A stretch of DNA of 64,000 nucleotides from Thermoanaerobaculia bacterium (GCA_046331405.1 JAXLQX010000003.1:307202-371201); one strand, 5' to 3'; counted from the stretch's first letter, positions 4,855 through 37,686 are shown. The notes: generated by a model from the letters alone, not told the origin. A program made the numbers and translations.

Positions 4855-6174
4855 TCAGCGCAGCACCTTCACCACGTGGTAGGACTTCTTGCCCCGCCGC
4901 AGCACCACGAAACGCCCGGCGAGCACATCCGCCTCGGCCACCAGGTAGGCCGGGTCGTCGATGCGCCGGTTGTTGAGGTAGACGCCGCCGGAGGCAATCG
5001 CCGTGCGCGCCTGCCCCTTGGACGGCACCAGCTGGCTCGCGGCCAGCAGGCCGGCGAGCGAGGCCTGGGGCGTGCCGAGGGCGGAGGCCGGGAGCTCGGT
5101 GGAGTCCCAGCTGGCGAAGGCCTCGGCCATCTGCTCGGGGGAGAGCTCGGCGAGCTCCCGGCCCTCGAACAGCACCTCGGTGGTGTGCTGGGCGCGGGCG
5201 AGGGCGGTGGCGCCGTGCACCAGGCGGGTCACCTCCGCGGCCAGGCGGTGCTGGGCGGCGCGCTCCTGGGGCTTCTCGGCCACGGCGTGGTCCAGCTCGG
5301 CGAGCTCGGCGAGGGGCAAGAAAGTGAAGTAGCGCAGGTAGCGGCCTGCGTCGGCGTCCGTGGTGTTGAGCCAGAACTGGTAGAACTCGAAGGGGCTGGT
5401 GAGCTCGGCGTCCAGCCACACGTTGCCGGCCTCGGACTTGCCGAACTTGCTGCCATCCGCCCGCGTCACCAGCGGGTTGGTGAGCCCGTAGGCGGTCGCG
5501 CCGCGCAGCCGGCGAATCAAGTCCGTGCCGGCCACGATGTTGCCCCATTGGTCGCTGCCGCCCATCTGCAGCCGGCAGCCGTGGCGGTCGTAGAGCTCGA
5601 GGAAATCGAACGCCTGCAGCAGGGAGTAGCTGAACTCGGTGTAGGAGATGCCCTGCTCGCGGGACTCCAGGCGGTTCTTCACCGAATCCCGCGCCACCAT
5701 GGCGTTCACCGAGAAATGCTTGCCGATGTCGCGCAGGAAGGCCACCAGGTTGAGCGAGCACAGCCAGTCCGCGTTGTTCACCAGCAGGGCGCCGTTCTCG
5801 CCCGAGAAGTCCAGGAACCGCTCCAGCTGGGAGCGGATGCCTTCGAGGTTCTCGGCCAGCTTGGCCTCGGTGAGCATCGGCCGCTCGCTCTGCTTGCCGC
5901 TGGGGTCGCCGATCAACCCCGTGCCCCCGCCCGCGATGGCGATCGGCCGGTGCCCGGCCTGTTGCAGCCGCACCAGCTGGAGGATGGGCAAGAGGCTGCC
6001 CACGTGCAGGCTGGCGGCCGTGGGATCGAAGCCGATGTAGGCGGTGACGCGCTCCCGCAGCATCAACTCGCGAAGCTCCGGATCGGTCACCTGCGAAACC
6101 AGCCCCCGCTCCGTGAGGCCGGCCACGAAATCCACGCTCATGACGCCACTCTCCCAGAAAGTACCCGGCGCCAA
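4855..6174 (-). CDS. tyrS: tyrosine--tRNA ligase
   Basis: HIGH-type motif (AASLHVGSL), KMSKS-type KFGKSEAGNVWL and a C-terminal S4-like domain. Start is TTG at 6174 or the internal ATG at 6141. Confidence 0.9.
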   Translation of the reverse strand: MAPGTFWESGVMSVDFVAGLTERGLVSQVTDPELRELMLRERVTAYIGFDPTAASLHVGSLLPILQLVRLQQAGHRPIAIAGGGTGLIGDPSGKQSERPMLTEAKLAENLEGIRSQLERFLDFSGENGALLVNNADWLCSLNLVAFLRDIGKHFSVNAMVARDSVKNRLESREQGISYTEFSYSLLQAFDFLELYDRHGCRLQMGGSDQWGNIVAGTDLIRRLRGATAYGLTNPLVTRADGSKFGKSEAGNVWLDAELTSPFEFYQFWLNTTDADAGRYLRYFTFLPLAELAELDHAVAEKPQERAAQHRLAAEVTRLVHGATALARAQHTTEVLFEGRELAELSPEQMAEAFASWDSTELPASALGTPQASLAGLLAASQLVPSKGQARTAIASGGVYLNNRRIDDPAYLVAEADVLAGRFVVLRRGKKSYHVVKVLR

Positions 6175-6396
6175 GCCGGCGCCCGCGTGATGCTACCAGG
6201 GCCCAACCCCACAACGCCCCGAGGGGGCCTCGGCCCGGGCGGGCTACGAGGAGCGGAGCCACCCCGAAGGGGTCGAGGGCGAGCACCGCAGGAGCCCGAT
6301 CGGACGAGGCCCTCACCGGCCCAACGCCCCGACCGCCTGATCCACACGGGGTTCGAGCTCGTAAACTCTTGCGAATACTTCCGCCGAGGAGAGCCC

Positions 6397-7503
6397 ATGG
6401 CCTTCTGGATCGCCGCTGCCGTCTGCTTCCTGGCCTTCGCCAACGGAGCCAACGACAACTTCAAGGGAGTCGCCACCCTCTTCGGCAGCGGCACCGCCGG
6501 CTATCGCATCACCCTCGCCTGGGCCACCCTCACCACCGCCGCCGGCTGCCTCCTCGCCCTCTGGCTCGCCCGCGGGCTCGTCGAGGCCTTCAAGGGCAAA
6601 GGCCTCGTGCCCGCCGCCGTCGCCGCCGAACCGCGGTTCCTGCTCGCCGTCAGCCTGGGCGCCGCCGCCACCGTGCTCCTCGCCACCCGCTTCGGCTTCC
6701 CCGTCTCCACCACCCACAGCCTCATCGGTGGCCTGGTAGGCGCCGGCTGGCTCGCCTCCGGGGGGCAAGTGGCCTTCCGCGCCCTCGGCACCGCCTTCCT
6801 GCTCCCCCTGCTCTTGAGCCCGCTGCTCGCCCTCCTCCTCACCCTCAGCCTCTACCCCCTCGTGAGCCGCGCCCGTCGCGCCCTCGGCATCACCCGCGAA
6901 AGCTGCCTCTGCGTGGGCGTCGAAACCTCCGTGCTCGCCCTTGCCCCCGGCGGCGCCGCCTCGGCAGCACCCGTCCTCAGCGTCACCCAGGGCCAACGAA
7001 CCGCGTGCGCCGAGCGCTACCAGGGCCGACTCCTCGGCCTCGACGCCGGCCGACTCCTCGATGCCGTCCACTTCGCCAGCGCCGGCACCGTGGGCTTCGC
7101 CCGCGGCCTCAACGACGCGCCCAAGATCGTGGCCCTCCTGATCGCCGCCGAAGCCCTGAGCCCCAGCCTCGGCCTCCTGGCCGTGGCCGCCGTGATGGCC
7201 CTCGGCGGGCTCCTGAGCGCCCGCCGCGTGGCAGAAACCCTCAGCCGGCGCATCACCACCATGAACGCCGGCCAGGGCGCCACCGCCAACCTGGTCACCA
7301 GCCTCCTCGTGCTCCTCGCCAGCCGCTACAGCTTGCCCGTCTCCACCACCCACGTCTCCGTGGGCGCCCTCTTCGGCATCGGCACCGTCACCGGCACTGC
7401 CCGGCGCGACGTGGTGGTTGCCATCCTCCTCGCCTGGGTCACCACCCTGCCCCTGGCTTGCCTGCTCGCCGCCACGGCCTACCGCCTCCTTCCCCCCGGC
7501 TAG
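6397..7503 (+). CDS. inorganic phosphate transporter, PiT (PHO4) family
   Basis: Duplicated GANDNFKGVATLFGSG / GLNDAPKIVALL motifs and multiple TM helices. ATG at 6397 is in frame with the long track ORF 4876..7503, whose 5' part is antisense to tyrS. Confidence 0.7.
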   Translation: MAFWIAAAVCFLAFANGANDNFKGVATLFGSGTAGYRITLAWATLTTAAGCLLALWLARGLVEAFKGKGLVPAAVAAEPRFLLAVSLGAAATVLLATRFGFPVSTTHSLIGGLVGAGWLASGGQVAFRALGTAFLLPLLLSPLLALLLTLSLYPLVSRARRALGITRESCLCVGVETSVLALAPGGAASAAPVLSVTQGQRTACAERYQGRLLGLDAGRLLDAVHFASAGTVGFARGLNDAPKIVALLIAAEALSPSLGLLAVAAVMALGGLLSARRVAETLSRRITTMNAGQGATANLVTSLLVLLASRYSLPVSTTHVSVGALFGIGTVTGTARRDVVVAILLAWVTTLPLACLLAATAYRLLPPG

Positions 7504-12362: not shown

Positions 12363-12725
12363 CTACTGCGAAGCGTCCTGGCAGCCGAGCAGGATCTTGT
12401 TGGTGATGGTCCACTTCTCCTTGCCGGCGCAGATGTCCACGTTCGACACCACACACTCGTCACCGTCCTCGTCGATGAGCTTGACGTCGTAGGTATCGCA
12501 AGGGATGTCGGTCAGGGTGAAGGACTCGCCACTGCTGATCACCGCCTCGCCCAGCTGATCCGGGCCCCACTGCTCTTCGTCCGTGCTGGAGAGGTAGAAG
12601 TGGTGGATCTCCCAGTCGCTCTCGTTGACGATTTTGACCGAGGCATTCTTCGCCCAGGCGGCCGAAGAACCCAGCAAACCGAGGACAAGCATCGACAAGA
12701 CAGAGCGCAAGAGCCATTTATTCAT
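12363..12725 (-). CDS. small secreted Cys-containing hypothetical protein
   Basis: Signal peptide MNKWLLRSVLSMLVLGLLGSSAAWA and 4 Cys. Sits in a lower-GC islet with AAT/AAA/TTG codons. GGAGG lies 6 nt upstream of ATG 12725. Confidence 0.5.
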   Translation of the reverse strand: MNKWLLRSVLSMLVLGLLGSSAAWAKNASVKIVNESDWEIHHFYLSSTDEEQWGPDQLGEAVISSGESFTLTDIPCDTYDVKLIDEDGDECVVSNVDICAGKEKWTITNKILLGCQDASQ

Positions 12726-12796
12726 AATATTCCTCCACACTGGAAAGCTAGGATTCTAGCACCCCCCGCCTTTGTGCCCTGGCATAACATCCCACC

Positions 12797-14971
12797 GTGC
12801 CGGCGCAAGAACAGCTGGAAGGAGCGGTGGAACGCATCCTCTTCCTGAACGAGGAGAACGGCTGGAGCGTGGTGAAGCTCGCGCCGGCCGAGGGTGGGGA
12901 AGCGATTACCGTGGTCGGCCACCTGGGAGACGTGCAGCCCGGCGAGAGCCTCGCCCTCTCCGGCCTCTGGCAGGAGGACCGCAAGTTCGGCCGGCAGTTC
13001 AAGGTGGATTCCCACCGCTCGGTCCTGCCTACCCAGGTGGATGCCATCGAGAAGTACCTCGGCTCCGGCCTGATCCCCGGCATCGGCAAGGCCATGGCGC
13101 GCCGCCTCGTAGAGCGCTTCGGCGAGGCCACGCTCGAGGTGATCGACCGCTACTCGGCCCGCCTGCTCGAAGTGCCGGGCATCGGCGCCAAGCGCAGCGC
13201 CGCGATCCGCGAGGCCTGGGTGGAGCAACGCGAGATCCGCGCCGTGATGCTCTTCCTGCAGGGCCACGGCATCGGCACCGCCCATGCCCTGCGCATCTGG
13301 AAGGCCTATGGCAACGCCGCCGTGGCGGTGCTCGAGAGCAACCCCTACCGCCTGGCCGCCGAGATCCACGGCATCGGCTTCAAGACCGCCGACCAGATCG
13401 CCGCCCGTCTGGGCCTGCCCCGAGACGCCCCGGAGCGCGCCGCCGCGGGCCTCCTCTACCTGTTGGCCGAGGCGAGCGAGCAGGGGCATTGCTTCTTGCC
13501 CCGGGCTCAGCTGCTCAGCCGCAGCCAGGAGCTGCTCTCGCTGCCGGCGGCTCCGCTCGAAACGGCCCTCGAGCGCCTGGCCGAGGGCCATCGGGTGAAG
13601 GCCGAGCCGGACGAGGCCGGGGAGGTAGCGATCTATCTGCCCGAGCTCCACCGCGCCGAAACCGGCCTGGCGGAGGATCTCGCGCGGCTGCTGCGGGCGC
13701 CAGGCCGCCCTCTCGAGCTCGACCTCGAAGCCGAACTCGCCTGGTTCGAGGCGCGAGAGCGGATCACCCTCGCGGCGGCCCAGCGGGAGGCCATCAAGAG
13801 GGCTCTGCATGCCCGCGTGCTGGTGGTGACCGGCGGCCCCGGCACCGGCAAGACCACCCTGGTTCGCGGCATCGTGGCCATTCTCGTCCGCCGCGGCCGC
13901 CAGGTGCTGCTCGCCGCGCCGACCGGCCGCGCCGCCCGCCGGCTGGCCGAGGCCACCGGTGCCGAGGCCCGCACGGTGCACCGGCTGCTCGAGTGGAGCC
14001 CTCGCTCCCTGGGCTTCGAGCGCCACCGGGACCGCCCCCTGGAAGCCGACCTGGTGCTGATCGACGAGGCCTCGATGCTCGATGCCCCGCTCGCCGCGGC
14101 GATCGCCGAGGCCCTGCCCGTCGACGCCCAGCTGGTGCTGGTGGGGGATGTCGATCAGCTGCCTTCGGTGGGCCCGGGCAACGTGCTCGCGGACCTGATC
14201 GGCTCCGGGGCGGTGGCGGTGGTGCGGCTCACGGAAGTCTTCCGCCAGGCCCAGCAGAGCCGCATCGTGGTCAACGCCCACCGCATCCGCCAGGGGCAGA
14301 TGCCGGAGCTCGAAGCCCGCGAAGAAGGCTCGGATTTCTTCTTCATCGAGAGGCCGGAGGCCGAGGGCCTGATCGCCACCCTGGGCGAAATGGTGGCCCG
14401 GCGCATCCCGGCCCGCTTCGGCTTCCACCCGCTCGAGGACATCCAGGTGCTCTCGCCGATGAACCGCGGGCCGCTGGGAGTGATCCAGCTCAACCGCCAG
14501 CTGCGCGAGCTGCTCAACCCGGCCGGCAAGGAGCTGGTGCGCAACGGCCGCGTGCTGAGGCTGGGCGACAAGGTGATGCAGGTGCGGAACAACTACGAGC
14601 GGGAGGTCTTCAACGGCGACCTCGGTCGGATCACCGCCCTGGACGAGGAAGAACAAGAGCTCGAGGTGTGCTTCGACGGCCGCCCGCTCCACTACTCCTT
14701 CAAGGACTTGGACGAACTCGCCGCGGCCTACGCCTGCTCGATCCACAAGAGCCAGGGCAGCGAGTACCCCTGCGTGGTGCTGCCGGTGCACAGCCAGCAC
14801 TACGTGATGCTGGAGAGGAACCTCATCTACACCGCCTTGACCCGCGCCCGCCGGCTCGCCGTGCTGATCGGCGAGAAGCGGGCGCTGGGGATCGCGGTGC
14901 GCAACGTGCGCAACCGACGCCGCCACTCGGGGCTCCTGGCCCGGCTCCAGGCCCTGGCCGCCGAGGCCTGA
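12797..14971 (+). CDS. recD2: RecD2-type SF1 ATP-dependent DNA helicase
   Basis: N-terminal HhH region, Walker A VVTGGPGTGKTT, helicase motifs and C-terminal SH3-like domain. About 724 aa, typical of RecD2. Confidence 0.85.
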   Translation: MPAQEQLEGAVERILFLNEENGWSVVKLAPAEGGEAITVVGHLGDVQPGESLALSGLWQEDRKFGRQFKVDSHRSVLPTQVDAIEKYLGSGLIPGIGKAMARRLVERFGEATLEVIDRYSARLLEVPGIGAKRSAAIREAWVEQREIRAVMLFLQGHGIGTAHALRIWKAYGNAAVAVLESNPYRLAAEIHGIGFKTADQIAARLGLPRDAPERAAAGLLYLLAEASEQGHCFLPRAQLLSRSQELLSLPAAPLETALERLAEGHRVKAEPDEAGEVAIYLPELHRAETGLAEDLARLLRAPGRPLELDLEAELAWFEARERITLAAAQREAIKRALHARVLVVTGGPGTGKTTLVRGIVAILVRRGRQVLLAAPTGRAARRLAEATGAEARTVHRLLEWSPRSLGFERHRDRPLEADLVLIDEASMLDAPLAAAIAEALPVDAQLVLVGDVDQLPSVGPGNVLADLIGSGAVAVVRLTEVFRQAQQSRIVVNAHRIRQGQMPELEAREEGSDFFFIERPEAEGLIATLGEMVARRIPARFGFHPLEDIQVLSPMNRGPLGVIQLNRQLRELLNPAGKELVRNGRVLRLGDKVMQVRNNYEREVFNGDLGRITALDEEEQELEVCFDGRPLHYSFKDLDELAAAYACSIHKSQGSEYPCVVLPVHSQHYVMLERNLIYTALTRARRLAVLIGEKRALGIAVRNVRNRRRHSGLLARLQALAAEA

Positions 14972-18790: not shown

Positions 18791-18800
18791 CGCGGGAGGG

Positions 18801-20858
18801 ATGAGAGGAGGATGCTGCCTCCCCGACTCCGTACACTACAGCACCAATAGCCACGTGTCAATAAGAAAAACGAGCCTGCGGCGTCTCTTCCTCCTAGCCA
18901 GCGTTCTGGCGAGCTTTTCTGTTTCTCCATTGATGGCGGCCGAATGGCGGCTTCCCGAGGGACTCGGCAAGCCTGCGCGGATCGCCTCCTACACCCTGGC
19001 CGCCCGGCTCGATCCGAAAACCCACACGATCCTCGGCGAGGGCCGGATCCACTGGCTGAACAGCTCGCGAGAGCCGGCCTCCGAGCTGCGCTTCCACCTC
19101 TATTTGAACGGATTTCGCAACTCCGCTTCGTCCTACCTCCGCTTCCAGGCAGGTCAGGACGTCGAGACGCTCGAACGGGGGGGCTGGGGGTCGGTCGAGA
19201 TCACGGCGCTCCGGCTCGTGGGCGGGCCGAGCCTGCTCGCGAGCCTCGAGCCGATCGCGCCGGACGACGGCAACCCGGCCGACCGCACGGTGGCCCGGGT
19301 GCCGCTGCCCCAGCCGGTGCCTCCCGGGGGCGAGATCGACCTCGAGGTGGGCTTCCGCTCCCGCTTGCCGCGGGCCGTGGCCCGCACCGGCTTCGCGAGG
19401 GATTTCCACTTCGCGGCGCAGTGGTTTCCCAAGCTGGGCGTGCTCGAGGCGGATGGCCACTGGAACTGCTCGCAGTTCCGCCATCACACCGAATTCTTCG
19501 CCGACTTCGGCGACTACGACGTGACCCTGACGGTGCCCCGCGGCTTCGTGGTGGGCGCCACCGGCGAGCGGGTGGAAAGCCACGAGGGGACGGACGGGAC
19601 TTCGAGCTACCGGTACCGCCAGCAAGGGGTGCACGACTTCGCATGGACTGCCTGGCCTGGCTTCGTGGAGCGTACCCGGACCTTCCGCCATCCCGGGCTG
19701 CCCGAAGTCGCCCTGCGCTTGCTCCTGCGCGGGGAGACTACCGGCTTCGCCGAACGCTACTTCGCCGCACTCGAGCACGGGCTCACGCTCTACGGCCAGT
19801 GGTACGGGCCCTACCCCTATCCGACCCTGACCATGGTCGACCCGCCCTGGGGCGCCGACGCCGTGGCCGGCATGGAGTACCCCACGCTGATCGCCACCGG
19901 TACCAACCGCTGGAGCCCCGCGGAATCGGGCAGCCCGGAGGGTGTGACCCTCCACGAGCTGGGCCACGAGTGGTTCTACGGCCTCTTGGCGAGCGACGAG
20001 TTCCACGAGTCCTTCCTCGACGAGGGCGTGAACACCTACGCCACGGCCCGGGCCCAGCGCCTGGCCTACCCGCCGCGAGCCTGGGTGTACCGCCTGTGGG
20101 AGGTGCCGCTGCAGTTCGGCACCATCCGCCTCGACAGCCCCCTGGACACCGCCGCCCGCTACTTCCGCCAGCCGTCCACGGACCCTTTGGCGCGAGTGGC
20201 CTACGGCTACCTCGACAGCTCGGCCTACCGCGCCCAGACCTACAGCAAGATGGCCTTGCTCATGGAGCAGGTGGAGCGCACCGCGGGCTCGTCGGCGATG
20301 GAACGGGCGATGGCGGCCTACGGCAAGGCTTTCCGCTTCCGGCATCCGCGCACCGCCGACCTCGCGCGCACGCTGGTGGCCGAGACCGGCATGGACCTCT
20401 GGCCGTTGCTGCGCCAGGCCCTGGCGGGCTCCGAAGTGCTCGATTACGCCGTGACCACCACCAAGAGCAGCCGGGATGGCGGTGTGACGGGCCTGGTCGA
20501 GCAGAAGGGTGCGCTCGCGGAGGTGAGCGGAGAGGGCCAGGGCGACTTCTATCGCAGCGAGGTGGTGGTCTCCCGCCTCGGCGGAGTTCGACTGCCGGTG
20601 GAGGTGGAGCTGGCCTTCGCCGATGGCCGCCGCCAGCGGCTCGTCTGGGACGGCGAGGAGACCTGGGTGCGTTACCGCATCGAGGGCCCGAGGCTGCTCT
20701 GGGCCGAGGTGGACCCGGAGCAGAAGATGGTTCTCGACGTCAACCGCCTCAACAACAGCCGGCGCGTGGAATCCGACCCCCGGGCTTCGCGGCGCTGGTC
20801 GCAGCGAGCCCGGTTCTGGATCCAGAACCTGCTCGAGACCTTCGCGAGCCTGGCATGA
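18801..20858 (+). CDS. M1-family zinc metallopeptidase (gluzincin), secreted
   Basis: HELGHEWFYG...E zinc-binding motif and signal peptide RRLFLLASVLASFSVSPLMA. Start uncertain: 18801 per the track, or GTG around 18856. Confidence 0.65.
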   Translation: MRGGCCLPDSVHYSTNSHVSIRKTSLRRLFLLASVLASFSVSPLMAAEWRLPEGLGKPARIASYTLAARLDPKTHTILGEGRIHWLNSSREPASELRFHLYLNGFRNSASSYLRFQAGQDVETLERGGWGSVEITALRLVGGPSLLASLEPIAPDDGNPADRTVARVPLPQPVPPGGEIDLEVGFRSRLPRAVARTGFARDFHFAAQWFPKLGVLEADGHWNCSQFRHHTEFFADFGDYDVTLTVPRGFVVGATGERVESHEGTDGTSSYRYRQQGVHDFAWTAWPGFVERTRTFRHPGLPEVALRLLLRGETTGFAERYFAALEHGLTLYGQWYGPYPYPTLTMVDPPWGADAVAGMEYPTLIATGTNRWSPAESGSPEGVTLHELGHEWFYGLLASDEFHESFLDEGVNTYATARAQRLAYPPRAWVYRLWEVPLQFGTIRLDSPLDTAARYFRQPSTDPLARVAYGYLDSSAYRAQTYSKMALLMEQVERTAGSSAMERAMAAYGKAFRFRHPRTADLARTLVAETGMDLWPLLRQALAGSEVLDYAVTTTKSSRDGGVTGLVEQKGALAEVSGEGQGDFYRSEVVVSRLGGVRLPVEVELAFADGRRQRLVWDGEETWVRYRIEGPRLLWAEVDPEQKMVLDVNRLNNSRRVESDPRASRRWSQRARFWIQNLLETFASLA

Positions 20859-31797: not shown

Positions 31798-32065
31798 CGG
31801 TGCGCGGCTAGGTTAGCAGGCCGAGGAGAGCGAAGACCGTTTCCTCGAGCCCAGAGACTACAACCTCACTCTCAATACCTACTTGCGAAATCGCTGCAGA
31901 CTAGCCAGTCTCCTGGGGCGTTGTCAAGGCCGCAGAAGGTTCCTAGGCCCATACCCGGCGCGCTACGAAGGATCTCCGCGCGATCGGCATCTACCTGCAT
32001 GTTGGCGCAACTTGGACCCCGACTCGCCGGCCCTCCACCGGCGGGTCGCACTGAAAGGAGCCCTC

Positions 32066-33085
32066 ATGCCCCGCTTCTCCCGCTGGATCCTCTGGCCCCT
32101 GCTGACCCTCGCTCTGCCTCTCGGCGCGGTCCCCGCCAGCGCCGACGAGGCCTGCCAGGAAACCGCTCTCTCGGCTCTGCGAGCCTGCCGAAGCGGCGCC
32201 CAGGACGAGTACCAGATCTCGGTCGGCAAATGCACCAACCTCGAGTTCGATCCGGCGGAGGCTCGATGCCTGAAGGAGGCAGGGAGCGCTCGCACCGAGG
32301 CTCTTGCGCTCTGCAACGAGCAGTACGACTCGCGGCTGGACATCTGTGACCGTCTCGGCGGCGCGCCCTACGACCCCGACGTGAATCCCTCTCTGTTCGA
32401 CACCGACTTCCAGCATCTGACTCGGCCGAACCCGTACTTCCCGCTCGGCATCGGCAACCGCTGGGTGTTCGACGGCGCCGAGCACGTCGAGATCGAGGTT
32501 CTCGACCGCGCCAAGTCGATCGACGGCGTGCGGTGCTTCGTGGTGCGCGATGTGGTGTCGGTCGACGGCGTTACCCACGAGGACACCGAGGACTGGTTCG
32601 CCCAGGCGAAGAACGGCGATGTCTATTACTTCGGGGAAGAGGTCAAGGACTTCGAGATCTTCCCGGAGGACGAGCCTCCTACGGCCGAGCTGGTCTCCAT
32701 CGACGGCTCCTTCAAGGCCGGCCGCGACGGCGACAAGCCGGGCCTCGCCTTCCCCTACGCGCCGCGCCGCGGCCAGTTCTACCGCCAGGAGTTCTCGCTC
32801 GGCAACGCCGAGGATGTGGCCGACGTGCTCACCACCGCCTACGCCTACGGCCGCAACGCCGAGCTCGACCGCCTGGTGCCGCGCGACCTGGCGCAGCTGC
32901 TCTGCTCCCGGGGCGACTGCGTGGTCACCCTGGAGTTCCAGCCCCTGGCGCCGGGTGTGTTCGAGCGCAAGTTCTACGCACGTGGCATCGGCGGTTTCCT
33001 GGTGATCCACCTGGATACCGGCGAGGTGGTGCAGCTCACCGGCTGCAACGTCGATCCGCGCTGCGCCCGGCTGCCCGCGCCCTAG
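32066..33085 (+). CDS. secreted hypothetical protein (Cys-containing N-terminal region)
   Basis: Signal peptide MPRFSRWILWPLLTLALPLGAVPASA. AAAGGAG lies 5 nt upstream of the ATG. Six Cys in the first 100 aa. Confidence 0.55.
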   Translation: MPRFSRWILWPLLTLALPLGAVPASADEACQETALSALRACRSGAQDEYQISVGKCTNLEFDPAEARCLKEAGSARTEALALCNEQYDSRLDICDRLGGAPYDPDVNPSLFDTDFQHLTRPNPYFPLGIGNRWVFDGAEHVEIEVLDRAKSIDGVRCFVVRDVVSVDGVTHEDTEDWFAQAKNGDVYYFGEEVKDFEIFPEDEPPTAELVSIDGSFKAGRDGDKPGLAFPYAPRRGQFYRQEFSLGNAEDVADVLTTAYAYGRNAELDRLVPRDLAQLLCSRGDCVVTLEFQPLAPGVFERKFYARGIGGFLVIHLDTGEVVQLTGCNVDPRCARLPAP

Positions 33086-33103
33086 GCGGAGCGCCGAGCT
33101 CAG

Positions 33104-33667
33104 CTATCCAGCGGATTCGCCGGCGTCTTCCGCCCCGAGCAGCAGCCGGCAGCGCATCGCCACCCGCAGGCGGAAGACGCCTCCCCGCTTGAGCCGGGCG
33201 GCGAGCGGGCGATCGACCTCGTAGACCTCGCCGCCGGCCCGCACCAGGGGGTGTTGGACTCCCAGAAGGCCGGCGCCGATGGCGATTTCGGGGGCCACCT
33301 CGGAGGTGATCAGCTCCACCTCTCCGGCCTCGAGGTCGGCCCTCGCGAGCCGCCAGCGGGCGAGCGCCGGCCGGACGCGGGCGGTCGAGAAGAGGGCCCC
33401 GCCGACGAGCACTAGCGAGACCGGCCAGGGCACGGTGGCGCGATGGGCAGCGGCGACGGCCGCCAGCGCGAGGAAGCCCAGGGCCAGCAGGCCGAGGCCC
33501 GCGGCGCGCAGAGCGAACCTCGTCGCCGCCCGGGTGAGGAATCGGCGATCGCTTTCGAGCAGGGGCTGGCGCTCGGGCTCCACGGCGGGGGGATTATCCG
33601 TGATCCGGCTCGCCGGGAGAACCGGTCTAGCTGAGCGGAGCAGCCAGGTCGGGCGTGGGCCGCTCAC
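33104..33667 (-). CDS. hypothetical membrane protein (possible membrane-anchored bacterial PH-like domain)
   Basis: Two TM helices, then a roughly 90-aa soluble domain. Confidence 0.35.
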   Translation of the reverse strand: MSGPRPTWLLRSARPVLPASRITDNPPAVEPERQPLLESDRRFLTRAATRFALRAAGLGLLALGFLALAAVAAAHRATVPWPVSLVLVGGALFSTARVRPALARWRLARADLEAGEVELITSEVAPEIAIGAGLLGVQHPLVRAGGEVYEVDRPLAARLKRGGVFRLRVAMRCRLLLGAEDAGESAG

Positions 33668-33713
33668 CCCGGAAGAGCGAGCGGCCCAGGCTCAGAGCTC
33701 GGAGGGCAGCGCC

Positions 33714-34538
33714 TCAGGGGCAGGCGCAGGTGCAGCAGGTGTTGATCGGCCCGGAGCAGTGCTGCTTGAGGGTCACAGGATCCTCGTGGCAGGTCTGGGG
33801 CTCGCACTGGCGCTGGCAGGTGGCCGACGGCAGCGGGTCGGTGGTTCCCGGCACCCAGCCCGGGGCGAAGTTCGAGGTGGCCGGCAGCCGGGTCTCGGCG
33901 ACGCCGTCGCGGTCCGCGTCGACCACCACCGAGGCGATCTGCTTGACCTGAGTACCCTGGGCGAAGCTCCAGGGCAGGGCGCTCGCGGGGAAGGTGAAGC
34001 TGCCGACGAGCTCGAGCGGAGCCTTCACCAGACCGCGCACGGGCACGAAGCTCATCTTGGCGTCCACGGCGAGCGGAGCCACGAAGTAGCCGCCGCGCTC
34101 CTCGGTACGGTAGATGTTCATGGTGGTGGCCCGCTGCTCGCCGGCCAGGGTCACCGAGACGGCGAACTCACCGCAGGAAGTCTGGATCGGCGCCACGCTG
34201 GTGAGCGAAAGGGCCCGGAACTTGATCAGCGTCACGGCCTTGCCGCTGCCGTCGAACACGGCGTCGTTCAGCCTCTCGATCACCGTATCGGTGCCGCGCA
34301 GCTTGCCGGGCTCGGAGGTCTGGAGCGGCACGCCCTTCAACATCACTCGCCCGGTGAACGGCGCCGAGCCCTTGCAGAAGAAGCCGGCCGGGATCGGCTG
34401 GTGGGCGAAGTCGTAGAACGTAGTGCCGTTGCCCAGGGTGGTGAACACGTCGATCCCCTTGTAGATCACCGGGTCGGCCGCCAGCACTGGGAGAGCGGAA
34501 AGCAGGAGCAGGATCGCCAAGATGCCGAGCTTCTTCAT
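33714..34538 (-). CDS. secreted protein with extremely Cys-rich C-terminal tail
   Basis: AGGAGG lies 4 nt upstream of ATG 34538. Signal peptide MKKLGILAILLLLSALPVLA. The last 35 aa carry 9 Cys (CQRQCEPQTCHEDPVTLKQHCSGPINTCCTCACP). The 5' 1.3 kb of the 721-aa track ORF is antisense read-through. Confidence 0.6.
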   Translation of the reverse strand: MKKLGILAILLLLSALPVLAADPVIYKGIDVFTTLGNGTTFYDFAHQPIPAGFFCKGSAPFTGRVMLKGVPLQTSEPGKLRGTDTVIERLNDAVFDGSGKAVTLIKFRALSLTSVAPIQTSCGEFAVSVTLAGEQRATTMNIYRTEERGGYFVAPLAVDAKMSFVPVRGLVKAPLELVGSFTFPASALPWSFAQGTQVKQIASVVVDADRDGVAETRLPATSNFAPGWVPGTTDPLPSATCQRQCEPQTCHEDPVTLKQHCSGPINTCCTCACP

Positions 34539-34726
34539 GAGACCTCCTAGTCCGTTGCAGCGGTTGGCGAACACGCGCAGGAGCACCCCAGCGCGTAAAC
34601 GGCGAGAGCCAGGGAACGAACGCTGAAAAATATTCCTTCTAGCCGAATATGACCTAATGCAAATCATAGTGTATGGGTGGAGCTTTTGCAAGCTCCGAGC
34701 GTCGCCGAGCCGCCCGCGGGCCGGAA

Positions 34727-35617
34727 CTAACGCGCTTCGGGCCGGCCGGCGAGAGCGTCGAGCTTGCGGTAGAAGGCGGAGAGGGGCTCGTCCGGGTTGT
34801 GGAAGGCGAGGAACTCGTCCAGCAGCTCGAGCTCGGGGGCGAGGCCGAGGGTCTCGGTCCACTTGAGGAAGGGCACCAAGAGGGGCGAAGCGCTCTCGAG
34901 CTCGAGCAGGAGCAACCGCGCCGTCACTCCGCCGGCCGCAAGGAAGCCGCTCGAGTCGTAGATGGCGAAGATCTCCTCGAGATCGTAGGGCACGGCCCGG
35001 GGCTCGATCGTGAAGCGTTCTCCGTCGCCCTCGAAGATGGCGTACTGGGCGCGCCGATCGCGGTTGAAGGGCAGGCCCACCGAGCCGACGTTCACCACCG
35101 TGCCACCGGGCAGCCGCCGCACCATGGGGCGGTGGGTGTGGGCGCAGACCAGCAACCTCTCCTCCACCTGCTCGAGCTCCCGGGCGAGTTCGTCGTCTCG
35201 GCTCCAGGGGCCGAGGCCTTCGTTCGCCGAGCGCGTGCTGCCGTGCACCAGGCGCAGCCCCGGTGCGCTCCGCGCCGTGAGCGAGAAAGGCAGGGCGTCG
35301 ATCCGGGCCACGTCTTCCGGGGCGAGTTCGGCCGCCATCCAGCGGGCGGCGGACCATTCCCGGCTGGCCATCGAAAGCCAGTCGGCGGGCACGGCACCGC
35401 GCCGGAAGTCGAGCAGATAGTCCTCGTGGTTGCCCTTCACCGAGGGCCAGCCGAGCTCGGCGATGCGCTGCACCACGGCGCTGCCCTGGGGGCCGCGGCC
35501 TACCATGTCGCCGCCCACCAGGACCTCGTCCACGCTCTGGTCGGCGAGGTCCGCCACCACCGCCTCGAGCGCCGGCAGATTGCCGTGGATATCCGCCAGA
35601 ACGGCGATCCGGCTCAT
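34727..35617 (-). CDS. metallophosphoesterase (calcineurin-like)
   Basis: [13 protein letters not shown] and GNHE motifs. Confidence 0.8.
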
Positions 35618-37686
35618 CGCGGCTCTTCTTCCGGCACGTTCGACTCGAGCTCCGCCAGCCAGGCCGAGGCGTCGGCGTCCGAGGGCGCCCGCCAGTCCCC
35701 ACGCGGCGAGAGCGAGCCGCCGGAACCCACCTTCGGACCGTCCGGCAGGGCCGAGCGCTTGAACTGGCTGGTGGCGATGAAGCGCTCGACGAAGACTCGC
35801 AGCCAGCGCTTGATGGTGGTGAGATCGTAGGCGCGGCGCTCGCCCTCCGGCAGATCAGGGGGCCAGCTTCCGGCCTCACGATCTTTCCAGGCCGACCAGG
35901 CGAGGAAGGCCACCTTGGAGGGCCGGAAGCCGAAGCGGGAGAGGTAGTAGAGGTGGAAGTCCTGGAGCTCGTAAGGGCCGATCTCGTCCTCGGTGCGCTG
36001 GGCCGGCTCGCCGCCCACGGTGCCCGGCACCAGCTCGGGAGAGACCGGAGTGGCGAGAATCGAGCTCAGCACCTCGGCGGTCGCTGCATCCACCCGGCCG
36101 CTCTCGACCTGCCAGCGGATCAAGTGGCGGATGAGAGTCTTGGGAACCGAGGCGTTCACCCCGTAGTGGGACATGTGATCGCCCACACCATAGGTGCACC
36201 AGCCGAGCGCCAGCTCCGAGAGGTCGCCGGTGCCCACCACCAGAGCGCGGTGGAGGTTCGCCAGGCGGAAAAGGTGCGAGGTGCGCTCCCCCGCTTGGAC
36301 GTTCTCGTAGGCGGCGTCGTACTGCGCCGCGCCTTGGGCGGCCGGGTGGCCGATGTCGGCCAGCATCTGGCGCGCCGAAGGACGGATGTCGATCTCAGCC
36401 GCCGAGACGCCCAGGGCCTTCATCAACCTCCAGGCGTCGCGGTAGGTGCGCTCGCTGGTGGCGAAACCGGGGAGGGTATAGGCCAGCACGTGGCTGCGCG
36501 GCAGGCCCATGCGATCGAGGGTCTGGACGGCGACCAGCAAGGCCTGGGTGGAATCGAGCCCCCCCGAGACGCCGATCACCACTCGCTCGAGGCCCACCGC
36601 TTCGAGCCGGCGCCTCAGGCCCTGGACCTGGATCTCGTAGACCTCGAGGCAGCGCTCGTCGCGCCGGGCGGGGTCCGCCGGCACATAGGGAAACCGCTCG
36701 AGGTGCCGCCGCAGGGGGCCGGGTGCTCGCGGCGGCTCGAAGTCGAGCTCGACGCGGCGGAACTCCTCAATCAACGGCTTCACGGTGCGGCCGTTCTCCC
36801 AGAACGAGTTCATGCGCAGGCGCTCGGCCGCTAGACGCTCGAGGTCGATGTCCGCCACGGCCAGCTGATCGTGGTCGGCGAAGCGCTCGGTCTCCGCCAG
36901 CAGAGTGCCGTTTTCGTGGATCAAGGCGTGGCCGTCCCAGGCGAGGTCGGTGGTGGACTCGCCGTAGCCCGCAGCGGCGTAGAGGTAGGCCGCCACCGTT
37001 CTCCCGGACTGCGCGCTGCACAGCAGGCGGCGATAGTCCGCCTTGGCCACGGTGACGTTCGAGGCCGAGAGGTTGGCGAGCACGGTGGCGCCGGCGAGCG
37101 CCGCCAGGCTGCTCGGCGGCACGGGCACCCAGAAGTCCTCGCAGATCTCGACATGGAGCACGAAGGCGGGCCGGGAAGAAGCGGTGAACAGCAGGCGAGG
37201 GCCGAAGGGCACCTCACGGCCGTGGAAGCGCACGGACGAGAAGCTCGCTCCCTCGGCCGGCGTGAAGTGGCGGGCTTCGTAGAACTCCCGATAGTTCGGC
37301 AGATAGCTCTTGGGCACCAGACCCACGAGGCGCCCCCGGTAGACCACCGCCCCGCAGTTGAAGAGCCGCCCCTCAAACAGGAGCGGCGCCCCCGCGAGGA
37401 GCACCGAAGGCAGATCCGCCGAGGCCGCGATCAAGTCCTCGAGAGCTGCTTCGACCGCTCCTTCGAGCGCTCCCTGGTGCACCAGATCGCCGATCGCGTA
37501 GCCCGAAAGGCCGAGCTCGGGAAAAAGCACCACCGCCGCCCCCTCGGCTCCGGCCCGGCGCGCCAGCTCCAGAGTGCGTTGCAGATTGGCCTGCGGATTC
37601 GCCACGGCCACCCGCGGCACGGCCACCGCCAAGCGCAGGAAGCCCTGGGTGTCGATCGAGCAAAAATCCCGCGTCGCCTCGTTCAC
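35614..37686 (-). CDS. nadE: glutamine-dependent NAD(+) synthetase
   Basis: N-terminal CN-hydrolase (nitrilase) domain plus C-terminal NAD synthase domain with PP-loop [10 protein letters not shown]. About 690 aa, as in long-form NadE. Confidence 0.85.

Follow-up and report, generated by a model that had tools for sequence, protein, structure and literature searches.

Among the described proteins with an eight-stranded up-and-down beta-barrel are the YceI-like periplasmic polyisoprenoid-binding proteins (PF04264) and the avidin/streptavidin barrels. Another is DynF, encoded in the dynemicin cluster of Micromonospora chersina; as far as is known, it belongs to the cytoplasmic proteins of biosynthesis clusters, and its own function is unproven. 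The DynF barrel is soluble and holds palmitate, and its authors reported finding no close structural relatives (PMC8725005). A predicted barrel with DynF as its closest solved fold is encoded on the minus strand of a 64,000-nt stretch of DNA from a Thermoanaerobaculia bacterium (GCA_046331405.1, JAXLQX010000003.1:307202-371201), which we analysed as a whole and refer to as the window. The gene runs from an ATG at 34538 to a stop codon at 33716-33714, and its 274-aa product ends in a tail where a pair of histidines is conserved alongside cysteines. We consider it possible, with a probability of about 0.45, that this protein is an exported ligand-binding-type barrel in which a His pair, braced by disulfides, serves to bind a metal or the head-group of a ligand. 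The family to which it belongs is new, widespread and functionally anonymous; its fold class can be recognised, and its His/Cys cap is distinctive.

The AlphaFold2 model of the protein scored well (predicted local distance difference test, pLDDT, of 91; predicted template modelling score of 0.86). According to this model, the core domain (residues ~23-191; 33966..34472, minus strand) is a soluble eight-stranded up-and-down barrel of the small-ligand-binding type with an N-terminal closing segment. Two motifs, PIPAGFFC and DTVIERL, lie within it, and its invariant residues are G69, D84, T85, R89, G150 and F164. The core can be superposed on DynF (PDB 6UBL) as a soluble eight-stranded up-and-down barrel, with YceI and the avidins as the next closest folds. 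The likeness to DynF lies at 15% sequence identity, and searches of PDB sequences with two family profiles returned nothing significant, with no DynF match at E ≤ 10. Foldseek likewise yielded no PDB match at E ≤ 0.001. One face of the long strands is lined with small or hydrophobic residues (A, T, I, F, A, S, T in strand 100-114), which may hint at a cavity. The YceI and avidin barrels share the topology of the core, but their structural scores are far below that of DynF, both lack a C-terminal His/Cys module, and none of 113 diverse family members matched YceI (PF04264) or avidin in Pfam. The eight-stranded barrel domains of bacterial haemophores and Slam-type surface lipoproteins (haemophilin 6OM5, HpuA and TbpB/LbpB) are a weak fold match. 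Unlike these, the 274-aa protein lacks a lipobox as well as a handle domain, and its gene was not seen to have a TonB-receptor or Slam gene nearby.

A distinctive part of this protein is its C-terminal His/Cys mini-domain (residues 241-274; 33717..33818, minus strand; CQRQCEPQTCHEDPVTLKQHCSGPINTCCTCACP). A preliminary description of this locus, made from the sequence, had drawn attention to a Cys-poor body followed by a tail with nine cysteines. The tail string that it quoted is exact, but we counted eight cysteines in it (C241, C245, C250, C261, C268, C269, C271 and C273); the body is indeed poor in cysteine, with C55 and C122 bringing the total to ten. Two of only three histidines in the whole protein, H251 and H260, also lie in the tail. 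Among close relatives, the tail follows the motif C-x2-3-C-E-P-x2-C-H-x6-8-H-C-[ST]-G-[PG]-x3-C-x4-C-P, in which C241, C245, C250, H251, H260, C261, C268 and C273 show little or no variation. The central CH...HC arrangement is kept in 115 of 120 close relatives, so the cluster did not arise by chance. Most of these (103) have six cysteines in their last 40 residues, while three have seven and 14 have eight. The 274-aa protein belongs to the eight-Cys minority ('CCTCACP'), and C269 and C271 are the extra cysteines of that clade.

Conservation across more distant members separates the histidines from the cysteines. In a MAFFT alignment of 111 divergent sequences, H260 is conserved in 95%, equal to the best-conserved residues of the core, compared to 76% for C250, 63% for C245, 47% for H251 and 46% for C261. 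A second alignment of 113 sequences placed both H251 and H260 at 90% or above. In distant members, the spacing before the CH pair varies from two to eight residues, the first cysteine is missing, or the tail contains no cysteine at all. Fifteen representatives with such Cys-free tails still retain one to four histidines, typically as Y-H-x3-5-H-x-H-V-x-P. A test of whether H258 takes the place of the CxxC pair did not reach significance (p = 0.10).

The cysteines themselves appear to be paired. Their number in the mature protein ranges from 0 to 15, yet odd counts are rare: 115 of 120 close relatives and 93 of 104 distant ones have an even number. C261 is almost always accompanied by C250 (49/51, Fisher p = 4e-6). 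Within the core, C55 and C122 are each conserved in 95% of the 111 divergent sequences and probably form a disulfide. Taken with export, the even parity and the coupling of C250 to C261 favour disulfides over thiolate metal sites, in line with the disulfide knot that had been among the earlier suggestions for the tail. From these patterns we infer five disulfides in the 274-aa protein and four in most relatives, of which probably four and three, respectively, lie in the tail. The model predicts four short tail strands (residues 243-246, 249-252, 259-262 and 265-267; pLDDT 81-87), and the second and third of these border a six-residue loop. If they form a hairpin, then C250 would face C261 across the strands, as would H251 and H260, with the two pairs on opposite sides of the hairpin. 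The side-by-side placement of the two histidines is thus suggested by predicted secondary structure only.

These observations can be combined into a model of how the protein may work. The mature product would be a Sec-exported soluble protein of ~27 kDa with three parts: the barrel, a DxDxDG loop and the 34-residue mini-domain. The disulfides of the tail would clamp two beta-hairpins of the mini-domain, so that H251 and H260 would lie side by side across the strands, beside the C250-C261 bridge. The His pair would be the working part of the tail. By binding either a metal ion or the polar end of a ligand inside the barrel, it would cap or complete the binding site of the barrel. Such a protein would act as a binding or scavenging module, either periplasmic or extracellular. 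Several points weigh against this proposal. The ligand or metal is hypothetical, and both the contact between tail and barrel and the closeness of the two histidines are presumed. Repeats of the barrel core in multi-domain relatives often lack the calcium-type loop or tail, showing that the core can fold in the absence of the tail. The conserved histidines could also be structural or pH-sensing residues that bind nothing. Finally, the gene context yielded no functional hint, either in the window or at the other family loci that we examined.

An even number of cysteines is also expected if the tail is purely a structural disulfide knot that does no more than stabilise the exported protein, with buried histidines and no contact between the tail and a metal or ligand. 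We regard this main rival as unlikely, if far from negligible, as it agrees with the loss of the tail from many internal repeats of the multi-domain relatives and with the lack of metal-handling genes consistently near the family genes (83 loci). It is weakened by the fact that the His is better conserved than any tail Cys, with H260 well above C250 and C261, and by the Cys-free tails, which still hold a His-x-His or a His pair. This is the opposite of what a pure scaffold predicts. The alternative favoured by the preliminary description, a metal-binding tail, would use thiolates, either in a zinc-ribbon or C2H2-like site (C241, C245, H251 and H260) or in a Cys-rich metallochaperone. The CxxC...H...H spacing in most close members would suit such a site, and two cysteines serving as ligands would leave the count even. 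The best PDB match of the tail profile is the U1-C zinc finger (E = 0.11-0.66), with the C-x2-C and the second His aligned. Even at E = 0.11 this match is not significant, and the tail alone had no Pfam match at E ≤ 10, so a likeness of the Cys pattern to known metal families was not borne out; no Pfam metal-binding family was matched by the protein either. In addition, the protein is predicted to be exported to an oxidising compartment, and the upstream Cys pair is missing or respaced (two to eight residues) in many relatives. With Cys counts that run from 0 to 15 at even parity, with 15 tails free of cysteine, and with two constant histidines that had been overlooked, we consider a thiolate site rather improbable; a zinc site of this kind might exist in the subfamily to which the 274-aa protein belongs.

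A further possibility is that the tail is a minimal c-type haem site, in which C245-EPQT-C250-H251 (CX4CH) and a distal H260 would form a mini-cytochrome tethered to the barrel. The CX4CH motif is present in 111 of 120 close homologues as well as in the 274-aa protein, with the E-P conserved inside it. The likeness to cytochrome c3-type sites extends to a second, invariant histidine about eight residues further on, ~34 residues per site and export, here by a Sec signal peptide as is needed for haem attachment. However, the motif spacing is not conserved in the family: CH...HC persists in distant members while the preceding spacing varies from two to eight residues or the first cysteine is lost. 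The four further conserved cysteines, the parity and the C250/C261 coupling fit disulfides better, no cytochrome match was obtained in Pfam, NCBIfam or PDB, and no dedicated haem lyase gene lies nearby. We therefore consider a haem site very improbable. On a broader scale, the family might constitute an unrecognised class of extracellular metal- or haem-handling proteins that combine a lipid-binding-type barrel with a minimal hairpin, either a disulfide-clamped bis-His or a CX4CH...H haem c hairpin. This is a speculative idea to which we give little credence. If it is true, metallophores, haemophores or electron-transfer modules would gain a novel type, one that is rich in paralogues in Thermoanaerobaculia, a class that includes metal-reducing anaerobes.

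Three other explanations are effectively excluded. The Cys-rich C-terminus, together with a radical S-adenosylmethionine (radical-SAM) gene ~7 kb upstream on the same contig, might suggest a core like those of ribosomally synthesised and post-translationally modified peptides, cross-linked by the radical-SAM or another modifying enzyme. The preliminary description had raised a modifying-enzyme substrate as well. Six unrelated genes separate the radical-SAM gene from the 274-aa gene, and the product is a 254-aa folded exported domain instead of a short precursor. Apart from a tyrosinase described below, no neighbour or enzyme family recurs at 83 other family loci, and this lack of a conserved neighbour makes a modification substrate unlikely. 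Secondly, an eight-stranded barrel could be an integral outer-membrane protein of the OmpA, OmpW or PagL type, but neither face of the predicted strands is free of Lys, Arg, Glu or Asp, and there is no aromatic beta-signal at the C-terminus (...CACP). These two properties exclude a membrane barrel, and the best structural match is the soluble DynF, while the same domain is repeated in long soluble surface proteins. The tail might also have been a species-specific, low-complexity extension, as the preliminary description had allowed; its conservation, with CH...HC in nearly all close homologues, contradicts this. So far there is no pointer to an unusual mechanism, and current ideas are left unchallenged.

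The family is large. A search of a 90%-clustered protein collection identified 818 homologues at E ≤ 1e-3, with lengths of 261-299 aa, and the best of these are all annotated as 'hypothetical protein' in Thermoanaerobaculia or Acidobacteriota metagenome-assembled genomes. A profile search of a 50%-clustered library identified 1,684 representatives, 186 of them below 1e-30, and a scan of GTDB species genomes, with search patterns biased toward close relatives, resulted in 268 confirmed matches. The best 79 loci originated from 41 assemblies, of which 40 are Thermoanaerobaculia or unclassified Acidobacteriota and one belongs to Holophagales. Genomes contain up to seven family loci, and tandem arrays of two to four copies were found in 13 of 83 loci. 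The longest of these arrays has four copies in a row (271, 271, 273 and 247 aa; L004 6001-9337, the same as L017) on a 1.5-Mb contig. Other arrays are found at L005 6001-7847 and L090 7001-9197, and pairs are present on many further contigs, also in a distant subfamily with a helical C-terminal extension.

Known families offered no annotation for these proteins. The 274-aa protein had no Pfam matches at E ≤ 0.1 and only spurious NCBIfam matches to adenine phosphoribosyltransferase (18 bits versus a cut-off of 243), and none of the 113 diverse members matches a relevant family in either database. For ten distant representatives, the cluster names gave only 'hypothetical protein' and one Planctomycetota label, and a literature search for a described equivalent found nothing relevant. 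The family comprises more than 1,600 clusters at 50% identity, is multicopy in genomes of an acidobacterial class that has received little study, and has no annotation in Pfam, in NCBIfam or at the level of structure. Defining it by its barrel, calcium-type loop and His/Cys cap would help to annotate numerous metagenomes from soil and sediment. Should a metal or cofactor be bound by the His pair, extracellular chemistry would gain a new and compact binding module; otherwise, the family would be one more domain of unknown function.

The distant members differ in domain architecture. Some are surface proteins with several domains and lengths of 500-3,100 aa, one of them labelled Planctomycetota, which bear extracellular features such as true TSP3 repeats, IPTL-CTERM or hydrophobic/Arg-rich anchors. 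The repeated unit in these proteins usually spans positions 28-185 of the family's hidden Markov model, often without the calcium-type loop or tail, which marks these two elements as add-on modules. In one distant subfamily (P0208, P0209, P0215, P0216, P0219, P0224, P0225, P0227, P0230, P0231, P0235, P0236, P0253, P0254, P0256 and P0259), a His motif, H-F-T/V-x-x-P-C, replaces the Cys tail and is followed by a conserved helix-like C-terminal segment, L-x2-L-x3-G-x-I/L...P-x2-V/L-L. This subfamily carries a different C-terminal module on the same barrel.

The remaining parts of the 274-aa protein are the signal peptide, the loop and a linker. Residues 1-20 (MKKLGILAILLLLSALPVLA; 34479..34538, minus strand) resemble a signal peptide, with cleavage predicted before A21-D22. 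Pattern inspection of the N-terminus (MKKLGILAILLLLSALPVLA followed by AD) revealed the n/h/c layout of a Sec signal peptide. Within it, MKK-LGILAILLLLSALPVL-A followed by AD reads as a type I signal peptide: its n-region is basic and its h-region hydrophobic, the cleavage site is of the AxA type, and a lipobox Cys is missing. The N-termini of homologues are built alike, with a hydrophobic stretch between the basic residues and a '..PLAAD' where cleavage is expected. The protein thus appears to be exported by Sec with cleavage of its signal peptide, as had been proposed before. Between the core and the tail, residues 204-230 (33849..33929, minus strand) contain a calcium-type loop (VVVDADRDGVAE) followed by the anchor motif TSNFAPGW. 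Residues 207-215 (D-A-D-R-D-G-V-A-E) fit the DxDxDG pattern as D207-x-D209-x-D211-G212...E215, and among the 111 divergent sequences D207 is conserved in 90%, D211 in 76% and G227 in 90%. The same pattern occurs in FG-GAP, TSP3 and EF-hand-like loops, and some members gave weak matches in the loop region (FG-GAP_3, EF-hand_5 and TSP3), below the Pfam thresholds. In contrast to those systems, the 274-aa protein has a single loop and no repeat array. Judging by its sequence pattern, the loop would bind calcium. The linker that joins this region to the mini-domain (residues 231-240; 33819..33848, minus strand) is variable, being gap-rich and of unequal length in the alignment, and has the lowest pLDDT (64, second model).

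The gene itself is well defined. The same 274-aa product was called independently on three other, identical contigs, supporting the open reading frame (ORF) and start codon given in the preliminary description. A 721-aa frame in a mechanical ORF list (33714..35879) is an artefact of open frames in high-GC DNA and runs into the metallophosphoesterase gene upstream. The strong ribosome-binding site that had been noted is a Shine-Dalgarno sequence, AGGAGG (34543..34548, minus strand), read directly 4 nt 5' of the ATG, and family genes in other genomes have AAGGAGG at the same place.

Upstream, on the minus strand, are the genes for a glutamine-dependent NAD+ synthetase (nadE; CN_hydrolase and NAD_synthase, 690 aa) and a 296-aa calcineurin-like metallophosphoesterase (34727-37686). 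These overlap by 4 nt (35614-35617) and are probably one operon that ends just before the promoter of the 274-aa gene. The 189-nt gap between this operon and the 274-aa gene is low in GC, as the preliminary description had pointed out: the minimum over 150 nt is 52.7% at 34519-34668, versus 70% for the 64-kb window. Only four dips in the window fall below 56% GC, and just one of them goes lower than this; the other three lie at 1891-2048, 12573-12867 (with the lowest value of all, 51.3%, at 12606-12755) and 18796-18946. Other family genes also have upstream regions of lower GC than their coding sequences (59% versus 66% on average, about 6-7 points). As low upstream GC is common to the family, we read the dip as ordinary promoter composition and see no sign of the acquired segment that had been suggested. 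The distinct promoter suggested as its alternative agrees with a sigma-70-like candidate, TTGCAA-17 nt-TATGAT (34663..34691, minus strand), within the low-GC stretch. It is the sole promoter-like site across 33000-35000, and shuffled sequences yielded 0.0.

An inverted repeat, GGAGCTT-GCAA-AAGCTCC (34679..34696, minus strand), corresponds to the upstream hairpin reported earlier. It was read directly, forms a 7-bp stem on folding and lies 30 nt past the stop codon of the metallophosphoesterase gene. As the repeat overlaps the -35 hexamer of the predicted promoter, it would lie outside the transcript of the 274-aa gene. It may instead close the upstream nadE-metallophosphoesterase operon; it has no T-run, which is why a terminator scan skipped it. 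The leader of the 274-aa gene folds no better than shuffled sequence (z = -0.71), and RNA structure is unsupported by an RNAalifold consensus of 17 leaders (only -1.2 kcal/mol with 4 pairs). A small hairpin beside the Shine-Dalgarno sequence showed mild enrichment and almost no covariation, and searches of the locus and the whole 64-kb window yielded no Rfam match and no tRNAs. Downstream, a terminator-like hairpin (33656..33688, minus strand) with a 15-bp G+C-rich stem and a 3-nt loop lies 26 nt past the stop codon and has no U-tract. The 87-nt stretch that contains it has a z-score of -2.28, and 3 of 200 shuffles folded equally well. With its own candidate promoter and this hairpin, the 274-aa gene would be a monocistronic unit.

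A small membrane protein ORF follows on the same strand (33104-33667), as described before; it encodes two hydrophobic segments and has no family match. Its start is probably not at 33667 (187 aa), as first given: the gene call on an identical contig uses a GTG at 33583 (159 aa), and this shorter form is favoured because 33667 lies inside the terminator-like hairpin. Homologues of this ORF do not adjoin any other family member (83 loci), so the suggested co-occurrence was not found, and without a conserved neighbour we do not regard it as a partner of the 274-aa protein. Next to it is a convergent gene (31886-33085, plus strand) for an uncharacterised exported protein of 339-399 aa, with a signal-peptide-like N-terminus, no Pfam or NCBIfam match and a Cys-containing N-terminal region (ACQETALSALRAC...KCTNLEF...RCLKE...LCNEQ...DIC). 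Beyond it lies an RDD/SpoIIM/DUF4129/DUF4350 cluster. When five neighbours from the window were compared by tblastn to the 83 other family loci, each had 0 matches. The contexts of distant members added little, with P0125 and P0209 on short contigs and P0236 and P0233 uninformative.

All-against-all clustering of flanking ORFs revealed no recurrent neighbour family except a tyrosinase in seven loci. These represent six distinct loci (L046 at 5144-7270, L035, L038, L075, L054 and L005/L026, the last two on the same contig). There, a secreted tyrosinase (PF00264, a copper enzyme) with DUF7868 is encoded on the strand of the family gene or genes, 0.3-2.8 kb further downstream, and a small DUF7868-like ORF precedes it in most cases. 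The tyrosinase is absent from the 64-kb window. It could hint at a link to copper, but we interpret it as shared local synteny in related genomes.

Many paralogues in other genomes (loci L008-L086), most of which have a GTG start, have in common a conserved non-coding sequence ~120 nt upstream, which falls into two classes. The first reads ...GCTCRCTTnAGC-n5-GGCGAGCACCnTTGAA-n4-GTAGGCCGCGC...AAACCGTCGTCCAGACAAGGAGG, and the second ...GGGTGCTCGCGG-n8-CGTCCTT-n-GGACAAGGAGG. The leader in the window (34536-34606, minus strand) aligns loosely with the second class (GGGGTGCTC...CCGCTGCAACGGACTAGGAGG). The conserved sequence upstream of the paralogues may be a shared promoter or operator.
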